This document shows positions 2,114 through 39,329 of a DNA stretch of 40,294 nt, in pieces. Position 1 is the first letter of the stretch; each line of letters opens with the position of its first letter. The DNA comes from Escherichia phage vB_EcoP-U8: sequence record MT862763.1. One strand, 5' to 3'. Both the position numbers and the translations under genes were made by a program. The notes beneath the pieces are model-generated. The model was not told the DNA's origin, did no database searches, and saw nothing but the letters and a program-made list of their open reading frames with translations.

Positions 2114-4795
2114 TTAAGCGAATGCAAAGTCTGAAGACAAGATGTCTTCGATATTCAGTTTACCTTTCTTCGGAAGCTCAGGCAACTTGTCTCTCTGGCT
2201 CTCGTGAAGCTGGTATTCAAACTGCTCGTAGAAGTCAAGCAGCACATCGTTGTCGCGGTAGGTCTCGACCATCGTCTCACGGACTCCACGGAACAGATAC
2301 TCAGCGTCAGCCGGGATGGTCCCGAAGCTATCGTGAATCACTGCGAATGACATCACGCCATATTTGCGGTGCGTGTGTACTACAGTCTTGCGGAGGTGGC
2401 TACCATCTTGTGAGTGGACGAAGTTCGGGCTAATGCCTGACTCCTGCTTGTGCTTGTCCAGCTCTTTCTTCGTGCCTTTGTTGACGGTAGGCTGAAGGTT
2501 GAATGACCCTAAGAACATCAGGTTCAGACGAGTGGTGTCCTTCTTGCGGTATTCCTGCCAGACAGGGAAACCATCAGGTGTGACCCAGTGTACCGGAAGA
2601 CAAGGCTTCAGGATTTCTCCAGTCTTCTTGTCCTTCACTTCAGCAGCAAGCAGCTTGGCAGCACCCTGAAGCCATTTCATCGCGTCAACCGCAGCAACTA
2701 CGGTCACACTCACAGCTTCCCAAATCATCTTAGCCATGAAGCGAGATGCTTGGCTTGGTTCAGTGAACATAGCGCCAGACCCTGAGTCAATCGCTGGCAT
2801 CACGATGTCCTCGTAAACTTGGTCTGCGAAGCCGTACTCTTTCGACCCGTAGGCCAGAGTCATGACCGAACGCTTAGTGACCTTTCGTGACATACCGTAG
2901 GTCAGCCACTGACGGGCAAGCTCTCGTGTCCCCAGCTTGAGACGCTCGGTAATCTCACCAGTTTTCTTGTCCTCGTGAGTTACCATCTCGTTGTCCGTAC
3001 CGTTAACCAGTAGGACTTTAAGCTCCTCCTCAATGCGGTCAGACACGATGCGGTAGATGTCTTGGACCTTACCGGATGGCGTCAGGTTTACTGCATGTCC
3101 ACCGATGTGGTCGCGAAGCATAGCGCTGAAGTGCTGAATCCCAGAGCAGGACCCATCGAACGCTATCGGCAGCGAGCAGGAGTAAGACAAGCCGTGGTGC
3201 ATTACGCCAGCATACTCGAAGCAGAACGCTAGGAAGCAGAACGGAGAGTCTAACTTGCCCCACCACTCAATGCTATCCATCGGTGCCTTGGCAGCAGCCA
3301 TGATGTTGTCGTGGTTATCTTCCACCCACTTGATACGCTCCTCGAAGGTGACTTTATCGACACCCGCGCAGTTTGCACCGTGGACCTTCAGCCATTTGAA
3401 ACCATCAGCACCAATAGGCTTACCGACTGCCAGAGTCAGAAGACCCTTTTGCATGTCGTTACCCTGAGGGTTGAACATCGGCACAGCGTAGACGCGACCG
3501 CGCCAGTCCATGTTATACGGGAACCAGATGGCCTTGAACTGAGAGAACTTGTTCGCTTGGTTGACGATAAAGCTCAGTGACAATCTTCGTGACTGTCTGG
3601 CCTTCTCGCGGCGATAGATACCAGCAGCAGCCTTCTTCCATGCCTTGAGTTCTTCTTCAGTCTCACCCGCATAGTCCTCAGGCTTCAGCGGTTCCATCTG
3701 AGGGATGTCATCAATAGGCGTGTTGTTCAGCTTCTCGACCATGTTCACCACTTCCAGAACCTTCTTGTTCACTTTCCAAGGTGTATTCTGAATGATGTTC
3801 ACAGCGTCATAGACTTCAGGCATATACACGTCTTCGTAGCGTGCTACCGCAGACTTAGACCCTAAGCGAATCAGTGGTAATGGTCTGCGTCCTTTGGCCC
3901 AGTACCCACCGCCTACGACACCAGTCCACGGCTTAGGTGGAACGACGCAAGGCTGGTAGACTGGAGCTATACCCGCAAGGCTGAATCCTCGTTGTGCCAT
4001 CTTCTTGACCCAGAAGTCTGACAGGTGGACCATCTCAACGTCAGCCGCTGCATTGCCAGCACCGTAACGCTTAAGCTCGACCAGTTGTGTGGACTGGATG
4101 ACAATCTCCAGCATCTTGATTCCAACGTGGACAGCCTCGGTCGGACTCCAAGTCCCCCACGCATCTTCCAGTTGGCCTTGCTCCAGCATGGATGCCTCGA
4201 CCGCTTGCATGTAGGCTTTCTTGTAGGACGCCCCGGCCCGCTTATTCAGGTTATCAGCTATCGCCTTCTTGAAGTGCTCTTTCTCCTTGTCACGGATGCG
4301 ACCGAAGCGGATTTCGTCCTCAAGTGTGCGACCTATCGCTGAGGCCATCGGTGTAATCGGTATCCCTTCAGGCTTGACCAGCTTGGAGAGTATGACCTTC
4401 AGTATGATAACCGCAGCAGACTCGCAGGAGATGCGCAAAGAGCGGACCTTTACGGCCTTCTCTTCAGTGCTCAACATGGTGAACGCTACGCTCGGACGAG
4501 AGGTTGACAGCTTCCCGTCTGGACCTTCATGCCACTCCTTGACGGCTTGCGCAATCTTAGGGACCAGAGTCTGCATCAAAGGCTTGGCGACCTGATTGTC
4601 TGCCAGTTCCCCTCGCTCAGTCTGTCTCTCAAGGTTCTTGATGAAACGTCGCTCGCCTTCAGTGTATGCCTCGTGCTCAAGCTGAAGCTGTTTGACTGCA
4701 AGGTCTTGCCCGTAGTGGTCAGCCAGTAGGTTAAACGGCTCAATGGCGTTCGACACATCAGAGAAGTCGTGCTTGTCAATAGAGATGACGCTCAT
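2114..4795 (-). CDS. Single-subunit DNA-directed RNA polymerase (T7 gene 1-like)
   Basis: 893 aa; collinear with T7 RNAP as recalled (MSVISIDKHDFSD..., ...ILSSDFAFA C-terminus, NMDWRGRVYAV, HDSFGT motifs). Confidence 0.97.
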   Translation of the reverse strand: MSVISIDKHDFSDVSNAIEPFNLLADHYGQDLAVKQLQLEHEAYTEGERRFIKNLERQTERGELADNQVAKPLMQTLVPKIAQAVKEWHEGPDGKLSTSRPSVAFTMLSTEEKAVKVRSLRISCESAAVIILKVILSKLVKPEGIPITPMASAIGRTLEDEIRFGRIRDKEKEHFKKAIADNLNKRAGASYKKAYMQAVEASMLEQGQLEDAWGTWSPTEAVHVGIKMLEIVIQSTQLVELKRYGAGNAAADVEMVHLSDFWVKKMAQRGFSLAGIAPVYQPCVVPPKPWTGVVGGGYWAKGRRPLPLIRLGSKSAVARYEDVYMPEVYDAVNIIQNTPWKVNKKVLEVVNMVEKLNNTPIDDIPQMEPLKPEDYAGETEEELKAWKKAAAGIYRREKARQSRRLSLSFIVNQANKFSQFKAIWFPYNMDWRGRVYAVPMFNPQGNDMQKGLLTLAVGKPIGADGFKWLKVHGANCAGVDKVTFEERIKWVEDNHDNIMAAAKAPMDSIEWWGKLDSPFCFLAFCFEYAGVMHHGLSYSCSLPIAFDGSCSGIQHFSAMLRDHIGGHAVNLTPSGKVQDIYRIVSDRIEEELKVLLVNGTDNEMVTHEDKKTGEITERLKLGTRELARQWLTYGMSRKVTKRSVMTLAYGSKEYGFADQVYEDIVMPAIDSGSGAMFTEPSQASRFMAKMIWEAVSVTVVAAVDAMKWLQGAAKLLAAEVKDKKTGEILKPCLPVHWVTPDGFPVWQEYRKKDTTRLNLMFLGSFNLQPTVNKGTKKELDKHKQESGISPNFVHSQDGSHLRKTVVHTHRKYGVMSFAVIHDSFGTIPADAEYLFRGVRETMVETYRDNDVLLDFYEQFEYQLHESQRDKLPELPKKGKLNIEDILSSDFAFA

Positions 4796-4864
4796 ACTTA
4801 AAGTCCTTGTTATTAGTCTTTCACTTAAAGTCTCTTTGGTCTTTCACTTGGAGTCTTAGACCTT

Positions 4865-4887
4865 GAGTCCTATAGTGATAGTTAAGT
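4865..4887 (-). promoter_or_regulatory. Phage RNA polymerase promoter directly upstream of the RNAP gene
   Basis: Plus strand CCTATAGTGATAGTTAAG at 4869..4886; +1 about 75 nt upstream of the RNAP start codon. Confidence 0.65.
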
Positions 4888-4892
4888 CAGAA

Positions 4893-5792: not shown

Positions 5793-6310
5793 CTTGATGA
5801 CCTCACCTCTTGCAGCTTGGACACAAGGAAGAAACAATCAACCAGTATCAACTTGCCATCCACAACCCGTACATTACGTGGGCTTATCTCAAACTGAATG
5901 TCTGACCCGAAGTTAGCGCAAGCGTCCAGCGCCATCATAACATCCATCAGGCCCTCCCGCACAGTCTCAGACTCAGACCTGTCGTGTGCATCTTGGAATA
6001 TCTCGTACCACTTGTGATACAGTTCGGCAGGTCGAGAGAATACCGGAGACCGTGAGAAGCAGTCTCGCAACACCTGATAGAGTTGCCATTGGTCATCGTC
6101 TAAATGCGCCTTGAGACCTCGTGTTGGTGGCATGTATTCCATCTCATATGTGCCTACCTCAATCATTTTGACTTCAGGGAACAGTGGAGACTCAGGGAAC
6201 CATCCCCACGCCATACACTCCTTGATTGGGTCTGAAGATACCAGAATCACACGCTTCCCGCAGTCCTTCAGGTAACACTTAGTGAATGCGCCTTTTCCGA
6301 TCAGTTTCAT
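5786..6310 (-). CDS. putative protein kinase, gp0.7-like but short (kinase domain only)
   Basis: 174 aa; N-terminal IGKGAFTKCY glycine-rich loop and VDGKLILVDCFF resemble T7 gp0.7 kinase region; SD AAAGGA 8 nt upstream. Confidence 0.45.
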   Translation of the reverse strand: MKLIGKGAFTKCYLKDCGKRVILVSSDPIKECMAWGWFPESPLFPEVKMIEVGTYEMEYMPPTRGLKAHLDDDQWQLYQVLRDCFSRSPVFSRPAELYHKWYEIFQDAHDRSESETVREGLMDVMMALDACANFGSDIQFEISPRNVRVVDGKLILVDCFFLVSKLQEVRSSRW

Positions 6311-6380
6311 CTTGTTTATCCTTTAGTTAGTGACTATCAGTCAGGCCGCTATCAGTCTAACGACCTGTAGTTAATCACTC

Positions 6381-6635
6381 TCAGTTAGCGAAATAAGGAG
6401 CTGAGACGCCCACTGTAGGACTCACGGTTATCTGCGAGTCTATCAGGTATGTCTCGTTGTCTATACGCACAGTATCGACGCTGTAGTTGCTGAACTGCTT
6501 GCTTGATACCTTGCGCACTACCACACGGTGACGCGCTCCTGTCATCTCTTTAAGCTGAATCCACGCATAACCTTTAGTGTTCACGAATACTTCATTGCGA
6601 TTAGTGATTGTGCTTAAGTGTTTCATAGTGTCCAT
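6381..6635 (-). CDS. hypothetical first early protein (gene 0.3 position; not Ocr-like)
   Basis: 84 aa ORF; start may be the Met at codon 4 (better SD spacing). Confidence 0.45.
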   Translation of the reverse strand: MDTMKHLSTITNRNEVFVNTKGYAWIQLKEMTGARHRVVVRKVSSKQFSNYSVDTVRIDNETYLIDSQITVSPTVGVSAPYFAN

Positions 6636-6804
6636 CCTTTAAGTTAGTGACTATCAGTCAGGGCCTTCAGATGTAGACTCAAAGGCCCTGTAGTTAGTCG
6701 CTATCGGCGCACATTAAGAGTTTATCCAGATTGTTAAAGAGCATTCCCTTCAGTCAGAGGACTTCAGGTAGACCGTTTCAGTGTCGGTCGTCACCGTTGT
6801 TTCG

Positions 6805-6843
6805 ATGTGGTACAGCTTACATCTTATCGTTACTGCTTGTCAA
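6805..6843 (-). promoter_or_regulatory. Candidate host sigma70 early promoter (T7 A2/A3-like architecture)
   Basis: RC reads TTGACA-N18-TAAGCT-GTACCACATCGAAAC, resembling T7 A3 (TTGACA...TACGAT GTACCACATGAAAC) as recalled. Confidence 0.4.
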
Positions 6844-7104
6844 CTACTTTCTGTCATCTGCCTGTTGTTCGTATGACTTATCAGGCTGTCTACTTAACCG
6901 GGATGACCAGGCGTCTTCACTATCCGGTTGTTGCCGTGTCGTGTTGACGGAAGCTATTAGGCCATAGTCTGGACCTATAGTCAATAGGTAATTTTAAATA
7001 ATATTGATTAAGCTATCGTCGGCCCCATGGTGTAAGAGGATGTAGTCTTTGACTAACATGTCTTAGACCTTAAGTCTATATCCTTGTGTCTATTAACGTA
7101 GGTC

Positions 7105-7185
7105 TCTGACTGTAGGTAGCGGCATTACCGATGGTCGATGACTGTAGGTAGTTAGACTGTAAGTAGTTAGACTGTAGGTAGTGAC
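7105..7185. repeat. Short tandem/direct repeats (GACTGTAGGTAG x4, last three at 15-bp period) in genome-end region
   Basis: Copies at 7108, 7140, 7155 (one mismatch), 7170; lies between gene 19 and the early promoters, where T7 carries terminal-repeat and CCTAAAG-type repeats. Confidence 0.6.
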
Positions 7186-7618
7186 TCAAGGTCTGATACA
7201 GATAGAGACTCAAAGAAGACCAATAGTCCCTACCTATCGTCTTTCCCTAAGCCATAGCCACAACCTATCGTTGACCTGAAGTCTTGACCATCGGTCTAAC
7301 CTTATGATAGACTGGGGTAGGGCCTTTGGTCTGGACTAAAAGAGGGCCTATGGGGAGACTTGAGGTTCTTGAACTGTGAGATGTGGTCTCAAACTTTTGG
7401 TCCAAAACTCATCGTCACTACTGTAGACCACAGCCACTGTAGGTCAATGACCGTAGGTCAGGCGACACTAGGATAGACCAATAAGTAGGATGACCCTAAG
7501 TGAGCTTCTCTTAAGGTGTTACCTAAAGTCCTTGACTACAGTAGCTAAGGTCAGTAGAGTAGCGTCAGCTATGAACTGACCTTAGGTCTTGCTTTCGTTG
7601 ATTGTTACCATTACGGCG

Positions 7619-7777
7619 TTAACGACACTCAGACACCAGAGAACATACGAGAGTCTCGACCCACCCGACCCACTGACTTCCAGCAGTAACGCCAGCAGCA
7701 AGTAGAACAGCAGCAAGAAACCTGTATGTAGCTCGATTGGTCGCCAGAGCTTTAAGTACAGCTTTGGTCTTTGCCAT
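7619..7777 (-). CDS. small hydrophobic ORF (gene 19.5 position)
   Basis: About 52 aa, MAKTKAVLKALATNRATYRFLAAVLLAAGVTAG...; SD AGGAGG 10 nt upstream; downstream of phiOR-like promoter. Confidence 0.3.
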   Translation of the reverse strand: MAKTKAVLKALATNRATYRFLAAVLLAAGVTAGSQWVGWVETLVCSLVSECR

Positions 7778-7957
7778 ATGCTACATACCTCCTGTATCTA
7801 TGGTCGGTGACTATCTGTATTGGAGGGATTATGATTAATATCACCCTCCTTCCATCGGTGCAAGCCTTAGGTAAGAACTCGGAGTCTGCCTCCTAAGGTC
7901 TTGCATAAAGTCTGCATATGTATATTCACTACAGTAATACTATAAGTAACCGGGGGT

Positions 7958-22296: not shown

Positions 22297-24654
22297 TTAG
22301 ACGGAACGAGCTTTCTTAGCGTATGACGCCTCCCAGCCACAGCCAACGATGGACACTGGGGTAGGATAATCTGACTCTAAGGTTAGACTCGTGGTTAATG
22401 CGTTACCATTCATAGCGAAGCGATACTGACCGTCACCAATGTTGGTAGTCCCAATGGTCTGCTGACCAAGGGTGTACCCATTAAAGGTGTTCACGAACTC
22501 CCGCTCACCGTTTCTGACAATGAGTCTAAGAGCGCCAGTGTCCTTGTAGTTGACCCAAGCCCGACGAAGTTGTAGGCGTCCAGTGTCTTCAGACTGAGTG
22601 CCGCTATCGTCTTCAATCTTAATCAGGAACCGTGAGAACTTGTAGGACATCAGATAAGACCGTCCTATGAACACTGTACGTCCTGACCAATCGCCATTTA
22701 GTATAGCCACAGTTGAGATGTCTGTCAATTCACCAAGGTCCACGTAGGCACCCTGACTGTCAATAAGATAGTACCGACCGGGAGACGGAGCGTTTCCACC
22801 ATAAGCAGAACCAATGTCAACCGTAGTCTTATAGGTGTCAACGTTGTATGAGCCAATTGGTATTACCATAGACACCTTGGAGTCAACGTGGAGTCTATAT
22901 GGCTCTAACGGAAAGTCGGTTGCCTCCTTGATAAACTTAAGGTGCTCAAGGTCCACACCGCCTTGGTGCTGACGAACAATGAACATGGTAGAGCCAATCG
23001 AAGCAGACGCCAGAATCTTATCAGCTTTAGGGAACTCCCAGTGCGACCAAGAGGCTTGAAGCTGTACGCCGTCCTTAAACAAGAACTTATAGATGTAGAT
23101 TCGGTTGTATGCACCTGTAGAGTTGACGCAGATGTAGTTCTCAGTCCCTGTACCTTGAATGTCAAACACCCCGTTAGGGATATAGGACAGTACGTGACCA
23201 GTGGTATCATCGGCATCCTTCACGTCAGACACATCTGCTACAGCGAAGTATCGCTTAATGCTGGTGAATGACCCACGAGGCGCTGAGAAGAAGACTGAGC
23301 GTCCTACAGCGAACGGTCTGGCGTTATCACCTAAGGCAAACTCTGAGCCTACATCAAGCTGGATAGACTTCGAGGTAAGGACCCCAGAGCTTGTCATCAC
23401 GAACTGCACCTCATCCGACCAAAGTAGTAGCTGCTCGCTAAACGGAACGGCATACTTAAGGATTGAGATTCTAGGATGACTTACAGCTACGTCAATAGGA
23501 TCATCATCACTCAGTGTAGCCACACTCTTAGGGAAGAACGCAAAGTAGCTGGCTGAACGGCTCATGATTACGTTCTCGCCTGACAAGAACCCCAGCCTAT
23601 TCCTGTAGAAGAACACATCGTTAATCGTAGCATCCACGAAGCTAGGCATAGGGTTTGTGTCATCATTACCAGCACCACGATTAGACCAGTCCAGAGTCTT
23701 GAACTCAAAGGAGCCGTCAGATTGTCTCACCAGAGCATGAGGCATTGTGGTGTTATCGAACCCAGTGACCACTCCCGGCTCTACTGTCTCCTTCCACGTC
23801 TTAGTGTTGGAGTCATACATCACGTAATATTCATCGGCGCTACTGTTGGTCTCACCTTGAATCTTAATGATGTACCCATTTGGAGCTGCAAGAGGCAACT
23901 TAGAGATTGTTTGCACCGTGTCGAGTACTGGGCTGATTAGCTGGTTAGCATAGCCATCCTCCGTCTCCACTGAGTTAATGTCAGTCCCTGAAGGGGCAGT
24001 GATTAACAGGAATCCAGACCCAAGGTCGAACGTGAAGGTAGGGTAAGCAGCAACAAGAAGGTCTCTCAGAGCTGCACCGATGGCTTGAGCGTCCACCTTA
24101 GGTGGGTCATTCTCGGCATCATTACCTGCTGGTAGCTTATGCGAGACCTTAACGCCACCGTTGATTCCCACCTTAAGGGTTCGACCATACTGTCCGCCAC
24201 GCAGGTTAATTAAAGCTCGTGCTTTGCGGTTATAACCAGAGTGTGACTTCTCGCTTCCACCTTTAACGACAACCTTACGGTTCACGATGAACGTATAGTC
24301 TGCAACAGTAACGACACGGATGTCATCTCGCGGGTTGGACGACTTAACGTAATCTACCGCACCGGAAACTGAGTATTGATTACCACTCAAGTCAACTACC
24401 TGAATGTTTGACCCGTTGAACACGATGTAATACTGCTCATGCTCGTCACGGTTAATCAGGTGGAACTTAGGGTTGCTCCCAACGTCGATGTTAAGACGTC
24501 TCTTGAAGACTGTAGGTGGACGCTTCTGTAGGCCATCACTCTCTGATGACCAGCAGTTTACCTGTTCCTCGCCTTGGTCCGAGAACCTCAGGATGTCTGG
24601 CTGCTGGCTAATGCCACCTTTAAGGTTCTTGATTGATTGAGTAATTAGTGGCAT
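22297..24654 (-). CDS. Tail tubular protein B (gp12-like)
   Basis: 785 aa; MPLITQSIKNLKGGISQQPDILRF and GRLQLRRAWVNY match T7 gp12 as recalled. Confidence 0.95.
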   Translation of the reverse strand: MPLITQSIKNLKGGISQQPDILRFSDQGEEQVNCWSSESDGLQKRPPTVFKRRLNIDVGSNPKFHLINRDEHEQYYIVFNGSNIQVVDLSGNQYSVSGAVDYVKSSNPRDDIRVVTVADYTFIVNRKVVVKGGSEKSHSGYNRKARALINLRGGQYGRTLKVGINGGVKVSHKLPAGNDAENDPPKVDAQAIGAALRDLLVAAYPTFTFDLGSGFLLITAPSGTDINSVETEDGYANQLISPVLDTVQTISKLPLAAPNGYIIKIQGETNSSADEYYVMYDSNTKTWKETVEPGVVTGFDNTTMPHALVRQSDGSFEFKTLDWSNRGAGNDDTNPMPSFVDATINDVFFYRNRLGFLSGENVIMSRSASYFAFFPKSVATLSDDDPIDVAVSHPRISILKYAVPFSEQLLLWSDEVQFVMTSSGVLTSKSIQLDVGSEFALGDNARPFAVGRSVFFSAPRGSFTSIKRYFAVADVSDVKDADDTTGHVLSYIPNGVFDIQGTGTENYICVNSTGAYNRIYIYKFLFKDGVQLQASWSHWEFPKADKILASASIGSTMFIVRQHQGGVDLEHLKFIKEATDFPLEPYRLHVDSKVSMVIPIGSYNVDTYKTTVDIGSAYGGNAPSPGRYYLIDSQGAYVDLGELTDISTVAILNGDWSGRTVFIGRSYLMSYKFSRFLIKIEDDSGTQSEDTGRLQLRRAWVNYKDTGALRLIVRNGEREFVNTFNGYTLGQQTIGTTNIGDGQYRFAMNGNALTTSLTLESDYPTPVSIVGCGWEASYAKKARSV

Positions 24655-39251: not shown

Positions 39252-39329
39252 AGCCCTTTCTCCTTCCACATATGGTACATGGACAGGTAGTCCACATTCC
39301 CGGTTGAGACCCACTGTCTAAAACACCAA

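Follow-up and report, generated by a model that had tools for sequence, protein, structure and literature searches.

A probable host-polymerase early promoter of the T7 A2/A3 type near the left end of a K1F-like phage genome

Results

Layout of the left end of the genome

The window analyzed here, i.e., the whole 40,294-nt stretch of record MT862763.1 from Escherichia phage vB_EcoP-U8, comes from a Kayfunavirus, a K1F-like relative of T7, and the region under study is 93–98% identical to K1F and other Kayfunavirus isolates. All of its large open reading frames (ORFs) lie on the minus strand. Position 1 of T7 aligns to window position 7381 (BLAST); the KM02 record starts at 7381 as well, the LM33_P1 record starts at 7373, and position 1 of K1F lies near 7410. 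Because the T7, KM02, LM33_P1, and K1F starts all align there, we read the window as a reverse-complemented, circularly permuted genome, with its left end at approximately 7381–7410. The first conserved ORF begins at the ATG at 6626 and encodes an 81-amino-acid protein of unknown function, the equivalent of K1F gp0.2 (6381..6626, minus strand; PHROG 10124, E = 9e-40), for which no Pfam match was found. It is followed by a 174-amino-acid ORF, called gene 0.3 in K1F records (antirestriction/Ocr-like), and then by several small ORFs. A T7-type RNA polymerase gene is found at 4795–2114 (minus strand; PHROG 414), and a Gp2-type inhibitor of host RNA polymerase is encoded at 39314–39093 on the same strand (PF16857, E = 5.5e-19). 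In other words, the gene set that goes with a T7-type program is present, with the phage's own single-subunit RNA polymerase downstream of the site studied here and a Gp2-type inhibitor of the host polymerase.

The site itself lies on the gene strand in the non-coding left end, approximately 540–610 bp from the end of the genome. For T7, a clamp is believed to hold entering DNA at about 850 bp until the remainder is drawn in by transcription (PMC8954989); at 540–610 bp, the putative promoter falls inside that length. The minus strand carries TTGACA-N18-TAAGCT within the span 6805–6843, upstream of the first early gene, exactly as in the original prediction, and both direct reading and an exact pattern search returned the same layout. 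Going downstream on the minus strand, the -35 hexamer TTGACA (6838..6843) is followed by an 18-nt spacer, AGCAGTAACGATAAGATG (6820..6837), and by the -10 hexamer TAAGCT (6814..6819), in which T-12 is 6819, A-11 is 6818, and T-7 is 6814. Direct reading continues with a discriminator, GTACCAC (6807..6813), which is identical to that of T7 A3, and with the A at 6806, the transcription start predicted by homology with the T7 A3 start at 750; TCGAAAC comes directly after this A. With its flanks, the minus strand thus reads AGAAAGTAG-TTGACA-AGCAGTAACGATAAGATG-TAAGCT-GTACCAC-A-TCGAAACAACGG. By homology, transcription would begin at or near A 6806, which places the start 180 nt upstream of the ATG at 6626.

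TTGACA-18-TAAGCT agrees with the sigma-70 consensus at 9/12 positions, with T-12, A-11, and T-7 all present. The -10 hexamer had been called weak, and this is borne out by its 3/6 consensus matches; the 18-bp spacer is not optimal either. Direct reading showed no A/T-rich, UP-like tract upstream of the -35 of the main site, and there is no correctly placed extended -10 TG, the only TG directly abutting the hexamer. The spacer also holds a copy of TAAGAT (6826–6821). We rejected this as an alternative -10: at just 11 nt from the -35 it is too near to serve, and it has no -35-like hexamer of its own 16–19 nt upstream. A promoter for the phage polymerase was likewise rejected, as the core of such promoters, ATCACTATAGG, occurs at nine other positions in the window and not at this site.

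A second, weaker candidate with an A/T-rich upstream tract had been placed at about 6953..6981. The candidate and its tract exist, but the coordinates were 3 nt off: the hexamers span 6956..6984 on the minus strand, with TTGACT at 6984–6979, a 17-nt spacer ending in TGG, and CCTAAT at 6961–6956. The predicted start is the G at 6948 (minus strand), and the whole lies 142 nt upstream of the main promoter. The A/T-rich tract, AATCAATATTATTTAAAATTACCTA, was read directly upstream of the -35 (6985..7009, minus strand), where it would act as a UP element.

Two further features mark the leader between the predicted main start and the first gene. A boxA-like sequence, TGCTCTTTAACAA, is found in the leader transcript at 6731..6743 (minus strand), identified by its identity with T7 and relatives; GCTCTTTAACAATCTGG is the same in T7 and the window and is kept in most K1F-like relatives. 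We take this leader sequence to match the boxA consensus of the E. coli rrn operons. Just before the first gene lies a stable hairpin (6646..6703, minus strand), which dominates both the minimum free energy and the centroid structures when the 187-nt leader is folded. The leader as a whole folds with a z-score of -2.98, and none of 200 shuffled sequences (0/200) folds as well. The hairpin occupies the position of the T7 R0.3 RNase III site and, judged from that position only, may be cleaved by RNase III.

Hexamer scores in the window and at its left end

Promoter-prediction tools had been suggested as a check on the site. A generic scan passed over both candidates, and a weight matrix placed both at the top of the gene strand at the left end of the genome. 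The generic sigma-70 scan listed a site only if both hexamers had at least 4 of their 6 bases matching and the second base of the -10 was an A. With this threshold, 7 sites were found in the region against 5.5 expected, i.e., no excess, and neither the main site nor the second candidate was among them. The main site was missed because TAAGCT has only 3/6 matches, and the scan is uninformative either way. An exact search for TTGACA-N16-19-TAAGCT found 1 occurrence in the window versus 0.02 expected in shuffled sequences, a ratio that overstates the significance, because the pattern was picked after the site had been seen.

For a graded score, we used a two-hexamer weight matrix that is crude and approximate, with base frequencies that approximate those of published promoter compilations. 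The main site scored 9.22 bits, ranking at about 18 of 80,516 start positions on both strands; with the same matrix, the T7 controls scored 9.37 (A1), 11.15 (A2), and 12.05 (A3). About 17 other sites in the window score equally high or higher on hexamers alone, most of them within genes. The hexamers alone are not beyond chance, and in this window a score of this kind does not tell true promoters from background. As the hexamers are statistically unexceptional, the matrix does not count as positive evidence, except for the ranking that it gives at the left end: in the approximately 800 nt of non-coding DNA at 6600–7400, the two candidates top the gene strand, and all others score at most 6.3 bits. 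The case for the putative promoter is one of homology, position, and conservation.

Relationship to the early promoters of T7

In the T7 record, the E. coli promoters A1, A2, and A3 start at 498, 626, and 750. Their sequences are TTGACT-17-GATACT for A1, TTGACA-18-TAAGAT for A2, and TTGACA-17-TACGAT-GTACCAC-A, followed by TGAAACGAC, for A3. A sensitive BLAST comparison of the left end of the window with T7 1–1500 returned 2 high-scoring segment pairs (HSPs) that bear on the site. The first runs in the window from the A1 region to the candidate -35 and spacer, and corresponds to T7 432–619, from A1 to the -10 of A2 (E = 2e-17). The second runs from just upstream of the candidate -35 to past boxA, and corresponds to T7 698–870, from upstream of A3 to the boxA/R0.3 region (E = 2e-14). 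The 2 HSPs are collinear and overlap on the candidate promoter, and the 78 nt of T7 620–697, the interval from A2 to A3, have no counterpart in the window. Because the HSPs overlap on the candidate and T7 620–697 is missing, the window has a single putative promoter where T7 has both A2 and A3.

Compared with A3, the site shares the -35 TTGACA, a -10 of the form TA...T, and the discriminator GTACCAC with its starting A. The initial transcribed sequence is homologous as well (ATCGAAAC... in the window, ATGAAAC... in T7), and the homology continues via ACACTGAAA to the boxA at GCTCTTTAACAATCTGG; the leader to the first gene is 180 nt long in the window and 175 nt in T7. The -10 itself differs (TAAGCT versus TACGAT), as does the spacer (18 versus 17 nt), and both the upstream flank and the first part of the spacer match the A2 position instead. 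With A2, the site has in common the upstream flank, including the 21-mer AAGTAGACAGCCTGATAAGTC (6895–6875) and ACGAAnAACAGG, the TTGACA -35, and the 18-nt spacer, and the A2 -10, TAAGAT, recurs inside the spacer of the window. There, however, it sits 11 nt from the -35 and is unfit as a -10; from the -10 onward the window is A3-like, and the 78-nt interval (620–697) is absent.

A trace of the -35 at the A2 position may persist upstream. In the first HSP, CAGGCAGATGACAG of the window pairs with CAGGTATTGACAAC of T7, which sets ATGACA (6852..6857, minus strand) opposite the A2 -35 as an apparent remnant. It sits 8 nt upstream of TTGACA, with a start-to-start distance of 14 nt. As a -35 in its own right, ATGACA (6857–6852) was rejected, since direct reading finds no usable -10 16–19 nt downstream of it.

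The original prediction had noted a close resemblance to the T7 A2/A3 context with A3-like downstream sequence. Both T7 promoters do have this form, A3 down to its discriminator and starting A; the site is, however, not simply A3-like, being A2-like upstream. Taken together, the alignments support the main site as an ortholog of T7 A2/A3, with an A2-like flank, -35, and first spacer bases, and A3-like sequence from the -10 onward.

By its collinearity, the second candidate corresponds in position to T7 A1 and is its ortholog. Both have a TTGACT -35, a 17-nt spacer, and an A/T-rich upstream tract; the length to the conserved GACACGG is equal, and each is the first promoter past the terminal repeat. 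They differ in the -10, where the window has CCTAAT and T7 has GATACT, so that the A at -11 is missing in the window, and in a TG at -15/-14, which is present and conserved only in K1F-like sequences. On this comparison, the phage has two predicted host promoters at its left end, versus three in T7.

Conservation among T7-like phages

To collect relatives, the 21-mer AAGTAGACAGCCTGATAAGTC, which is exact in T7 and the window, was used as a probe, and it retrieved 45 IMG/VR contigs of T7-like phages. This 21-mer is even more conserved than the promoter. Sixteen distinct K1F-like sequences were then aligned without reference to the promoter. In these, the -35 is invariant and the spacer is variable, and the -10 always keeps its bases 1, 2, and 6 and differs in the three between them (TAAGCT, TAGTAT, TAATAT, and TAGCAT); a set of 18 unique 85-mers gave the same pattern of -35 and -10 conservation. 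The functional positions are thus kept and the spacer drifts, in a K1F-like sample that is shallow, with about two -10 alleles. Between two such alleles alone, we estimate that the T/A/T positions would agree by chance about 1 time in 10. Considering that the K1F-like set comes down to essentially two -10 alleles, the footprint is convincing only when T7 and the T3/T7-like contigs are included.

The 18-nt spacer also occurs in T7 A2 and most K1F-like relatives. In an alignment of 6 sequences (the window, T7 A2, T7 A3, both promoters of contig L009, and the promoter of contig L026), the few invariant columns include TTGACA, G-T-A, and the T that closes the -10. Viral contigs were also scanned with the 15-mer GTACCACATCGAAAC; the matches were mostly chance matches in unrelated contigs, and only the T7-like ones were used. 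Among cultured phages, a 61-mer identical to that of the window is found in 4 records (SD6, EV136_1, AN24P4, and T147P5), and versions with at least 95% identity occur in about 32 records, K1F included.

The number of promoters varies among the relatives, with 1 to 3 TTGACA-type promoters per contig between A1 and boxA. In 4 contigs (L009, L035, L036, and L047), a first promoter with TAGTAT is followed, 148 nt further downstream, by a separate second one, TTGACA-17-TAAGCT-GTACCACATCGAAAC. Five T3/T7-like contigs carry the counterpart of this second promoter, likewise with a 17-nt spacer but with TAAGAT, which is one base off TAAGCT. In 3 of these (L009, L035, and L047), we compared the tandem pair, TTGACA-18-TAGTAT and TTGACA-17-TAAGCT, with the single promoter of the window. 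The flank, the -35, and the first spacer bases of the window equal the first promoter, and TGTAAGCTGTACCACATCGAAAC of the window equals the second; the two promoters lie 148 nt apart in those contigs, whereas the window has one. The varying number of promoters per contig suggests gain and loss by recombination between repeated cores. A simple crossover within the L009 arrangement would not give the window promoter, as ACGATAAGA in the middle of the window's spacer matches neither copy.

The A1-type promoter shows a different pattern. Its position is collinear with TTGACT-17-TACTAT in the T3/T7-like contigs, and the register of its -10 was taken from the homologous hexamers of other lineages (TACTAT, TATAGT, and GATACT). 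The -35 hardly changes among the K1F-like sequences, being TTGACT in all but three, which have TTGACA, and the -10 in this register reads CCTAAT, CTTAAT, TTTAAT, or TGTAAT, never with an A at -11. All of them share the TG at -15/-14 and the block TAATAG. TGG precedes the hexamer in all 16 K1F-like sequences (16/16) and is absent from the T3/T7-like A1 promoters with TACTAT. In extended -10 promoters, such a TG one base ahead of the hexamer makes up for a weak -10, but A-11 is normally kept. The A1-type site may be an extended -10 promoter, may use TAATAG with a 19-nt spacer (score 3.96), or may be weak. A consensus fold of the interval between the A1 and A2 positions gave a weak signal, with 3 pairs showing compensatory changes and a covariation term of -0.39.

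Discussion

That T7-like genomes carry early promoters for the host polymerase at their left end is textbook knowledge, and the features that define the A1/A2/A3 class of the T7 group in silico can all be found at this site: the hexamers and their spacing, position and orientation, collinearity with T7, a conservation footprint, and the accompanying gene set. We therefore put the probability that the site is a functional sigma-70 early promoter for E. coli RNA polymerase, orthologous to T7 A2/A3, at roughly 85%. The original reading of the site as a host-polymerase early promoter gains support from T7 collinearity, conservation, position, and partner genes, and its basis is comparative throughout. 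A literature search covering work other than the original K1F genome paper found no mapped early transcript starts for K1F or Kayfunavirus phages; we infer host-polymerase binding, the start site, promoter strength, leader processing, and shut-off.

As a working model, the left end of the genome would enter the cell first, and the E. coli sigma-70 holoenzyme would bind TTGACA (6843–6838) and TAAGCT (6819–6814) across the 18-bp spacer. The DNA would melt from about A-11 (6818) to T-7 (6814), with initiation at or near A 6806 and transcription running rightward in phage terms, i.e., along the minus strand of the window. The transcript would pass through the 180-nt leader, with its boxA-like sequence and the hairpin at the position of T7 R0.3, and go on into the early genes, from the 81-amino-acid gp0.2-like gene and the Ocr-like gene 0.3 to and past the RNA polymerase gene at 4795–2114. 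As in T7, this transcription would help to draw in the remaining phage DNA, and the promoter would later be shut off by the Gp2-like inhibitor of the host polymerase (39314–39093).

An unlikely alternative is that the site is a decayed homolog of T7 A2/A3, weak or silent, with early transcription and genome entry relying on the upstream A1-type promoter. Its -10 has 3/6 consensus matches, against 4/6 for the TAAGAT, TACGAT, and TAGTAT of T7 and most relatives, its matrix score of 9.22 is below the 11.15–12.05 of T7 A2 and A3, and it lacks the UP-like tract; the lineage has, moreover, already lost one promoter of the array, which means that copy number is not strictly constrained. Yet the most important positions of the -10 (T-12, A-11, and T-7) are all kept along with a perfect -35, and the score, crude as it is, is level with the score of the very strong T7 promoter A1. 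TAAGCT has also been retained in two promoter contexts across several lineages and in more than 30 cultured phages. The A1-like promoter on which the phage would then depend has the worse defect, since it is the one in which the A at -11 is missing.

A functional A2/A3-type promoter is the preferred reading, against which a chance match of the hexamers, with the conservation due to a gp0.1 ORF or to an RNA or DNA element in the transcript of the upstream promoter, is highly improbable. In its favor, about 17 positions in the window match or exceed the hexamer score, a gp0.1 ORF that ends right at the -35 is annotated in records AM084414 and LT594300, and the neighboring 21-mer (6895–6875) is more conserved than the promoter. 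Against it, such an ORF would in any case stop short of the -35, and conservation falls precisely on the -35 and the T/A/T of the -10, a pattern that is neither codon-like nor helix-like. The site can also be aligned, base for base, with two T7 promoters that were defined by experiment, and no Rfam family is found in the region (no matches for 6300–7800 with E up to 1). A coding gp0.1 in the interval between the A1 and A2 positions, as annotated in those 2 records, was rejected, as its frame is interrupted by an in-frame stop codon in the window; with the frame broken, coding constraint does not explain the conservation.

In the records that we checked (K1F twice, LM33_P1, and Pipis) and in the annotations under the other matches, no promoter is annotated at this site. 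The records show nothing here, or doubtful ORFs labeled "gp0.1," "alpha trehalase," or "hypothetical protein." The putative promoter is in this sense unannotated in the inspected public records, yet it is a biologically expected, ordinary feature. Conceptually, it adds little; of mild interest are the array copy number, which varies by apparent recombination between cores, and the atypical -10 of the A1 ortholog. The practical value lies in a corrected annotation. Engineering of K1F-type phages for therapy and diagnostics is under way, and for cell-free rebooting of genomes and the safe insertion of payloads it matters where the host-driven early transcript starts.

A more tentative idea, which we consider possible though doubtful, is that in the K1F lineage the three-promoter array has been remodeled by recombination between promoter cores, such that A2 and A3 were fused and the A1 ortholog, without the normally essential A-11, became perhaps weak or TG-dependent. 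If this were true, early transcription and the genome entry coupled to it would be driven mainly from TTGACA-18-TAAGCT rather than from A1 in these phages, and the copy number of early promoters, with 1 to 3 TTGACA promoters after A1, would evolve fast and tune how quickly an infection proceeds.

Conservation and architecture of the early region

The interval between the A1-type promoter (the candidate T7 A1 ortholog, minus strand, window 6956-6984) and the A2/A3-type promoter (the candidate host sigma-70 early promoter, minus strand, 6806-6843) contains the 21-mer AAGTAGACAGCCTGATAAGTC (minus strand, 6875-6895), which is better conserved than either of the promoters flanking it. An exact copy lies at positions 551-571 of T7, and the sequence is also unchanged in 45 contigs of IMG/VR that represent several lineages of T7-like phages. 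A small stem-loop immediately upstream of the 21-mer shows some compensatory changes (CCGG/CCGG, CCAG/CTGG, CCAC/GTGG), and a possible second stem, GCCUG...CAGGC, is invariant. Both the A1-type promoter and this interval are covered by an ORF annotated as "gp0.1" in K1F (AM084414) and LM33_P1 (minus strand, 6844-7059), a stretch labeled "alpha trehalase" or "hypothetical protein" in other records. In the window, a stop codon interrupts this ORF, which is therefore probably not a gene.

In relatives of the Vec13 and Pipis types, about 170 nt are inserted between the ATGACA remnant (the apparent leftover of a -35 element at the T7 A2 position; minus strand, 6852-6857) and the A2/A3-type promoter. 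This insertion, found at about 533-705 in contig L029 and about 1293-1465 in contig L036, is G+C-rich, looks self-complementary and is missing from the window. Downstream, the early leader contains a boxA-like sequence, TGCTCTTTAACAA (minus strand, 6731-6743), of which GCTCTTTAACAATCTGG is the same in T7 and is kept in most K1F-like relatives. The boxA elements of rrn operons and of lambda support Nus-factor-dependent processive transcription, and the presence of the boxA-like sequence in the leader suggests that early transcription of this phage may likewise be processive in a Nus-factor-dependent manner. Directly upstream of the first early gene, at the position of the T7 R0.3 RNase III site, lies a stable hairpin (minus strand, 6646-6703), within which some relatives have an extra ~20-30 nt.

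On the minus strand, the phage genome has its physical left end at about 7381-7410, where TCTCACAGTTCAAGAACCTCAAGTCTCCCCATAGG (at about 7381) aligns with positions 1-35 of T7. Since the left end thus falls inside the window, the alignment indicates that the record is a permuted, reverse-complemented assembly. The left end is followed, at about 7120-7190, by short tandem motifs (CTACCTACAGTCTAAC...) that resemble the left-end repeats of T7.

Other promoter-like sequences

No more than about 100 bp from the left end, a sigma-70-like site on the plus strand (TTGACC-18-TAGACT, with TG ahead of the -10; 7284-7313) points leftward; it is reminiscent of the leftward A0 promoter of T7, although its position differs. 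The best sigma-70 consensus match of the whole window, TTGACA-17-TATACT (11/12 consensus positions), lies on the minus strand, which is the gene strand, at 22700-22728 within a 785-aa ORF (22297-24654), and could be either a minor internal host promoter or a chance occurrence. The sequence TTGACA-17-TAGTAT-GTACCACATCGAAAC, with a ribosome-binding site and ATG directly downstream, was found on the minus strand of IMGVR_UViG_3300033069_000240, around a match at 2131-2145. This A/T-rich viral contig is apparently unrelated, and its promoter core equals that of K1F-like phages, which could reflect chance or a promoter module held in common.

Finally, a phage-polymerase promoter, GACTTAACTATCACTATAGGACTCAA (minus strand, 4863-4888), adjoins the phage RNA polymerase gene (start at 4795) on its upstream side, and an identical sequence lies at 2473 in K1F, upstream of gene 1. 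A promoter of this type ahead of the polymerase gene would mean positive feedback on polymerase expression.
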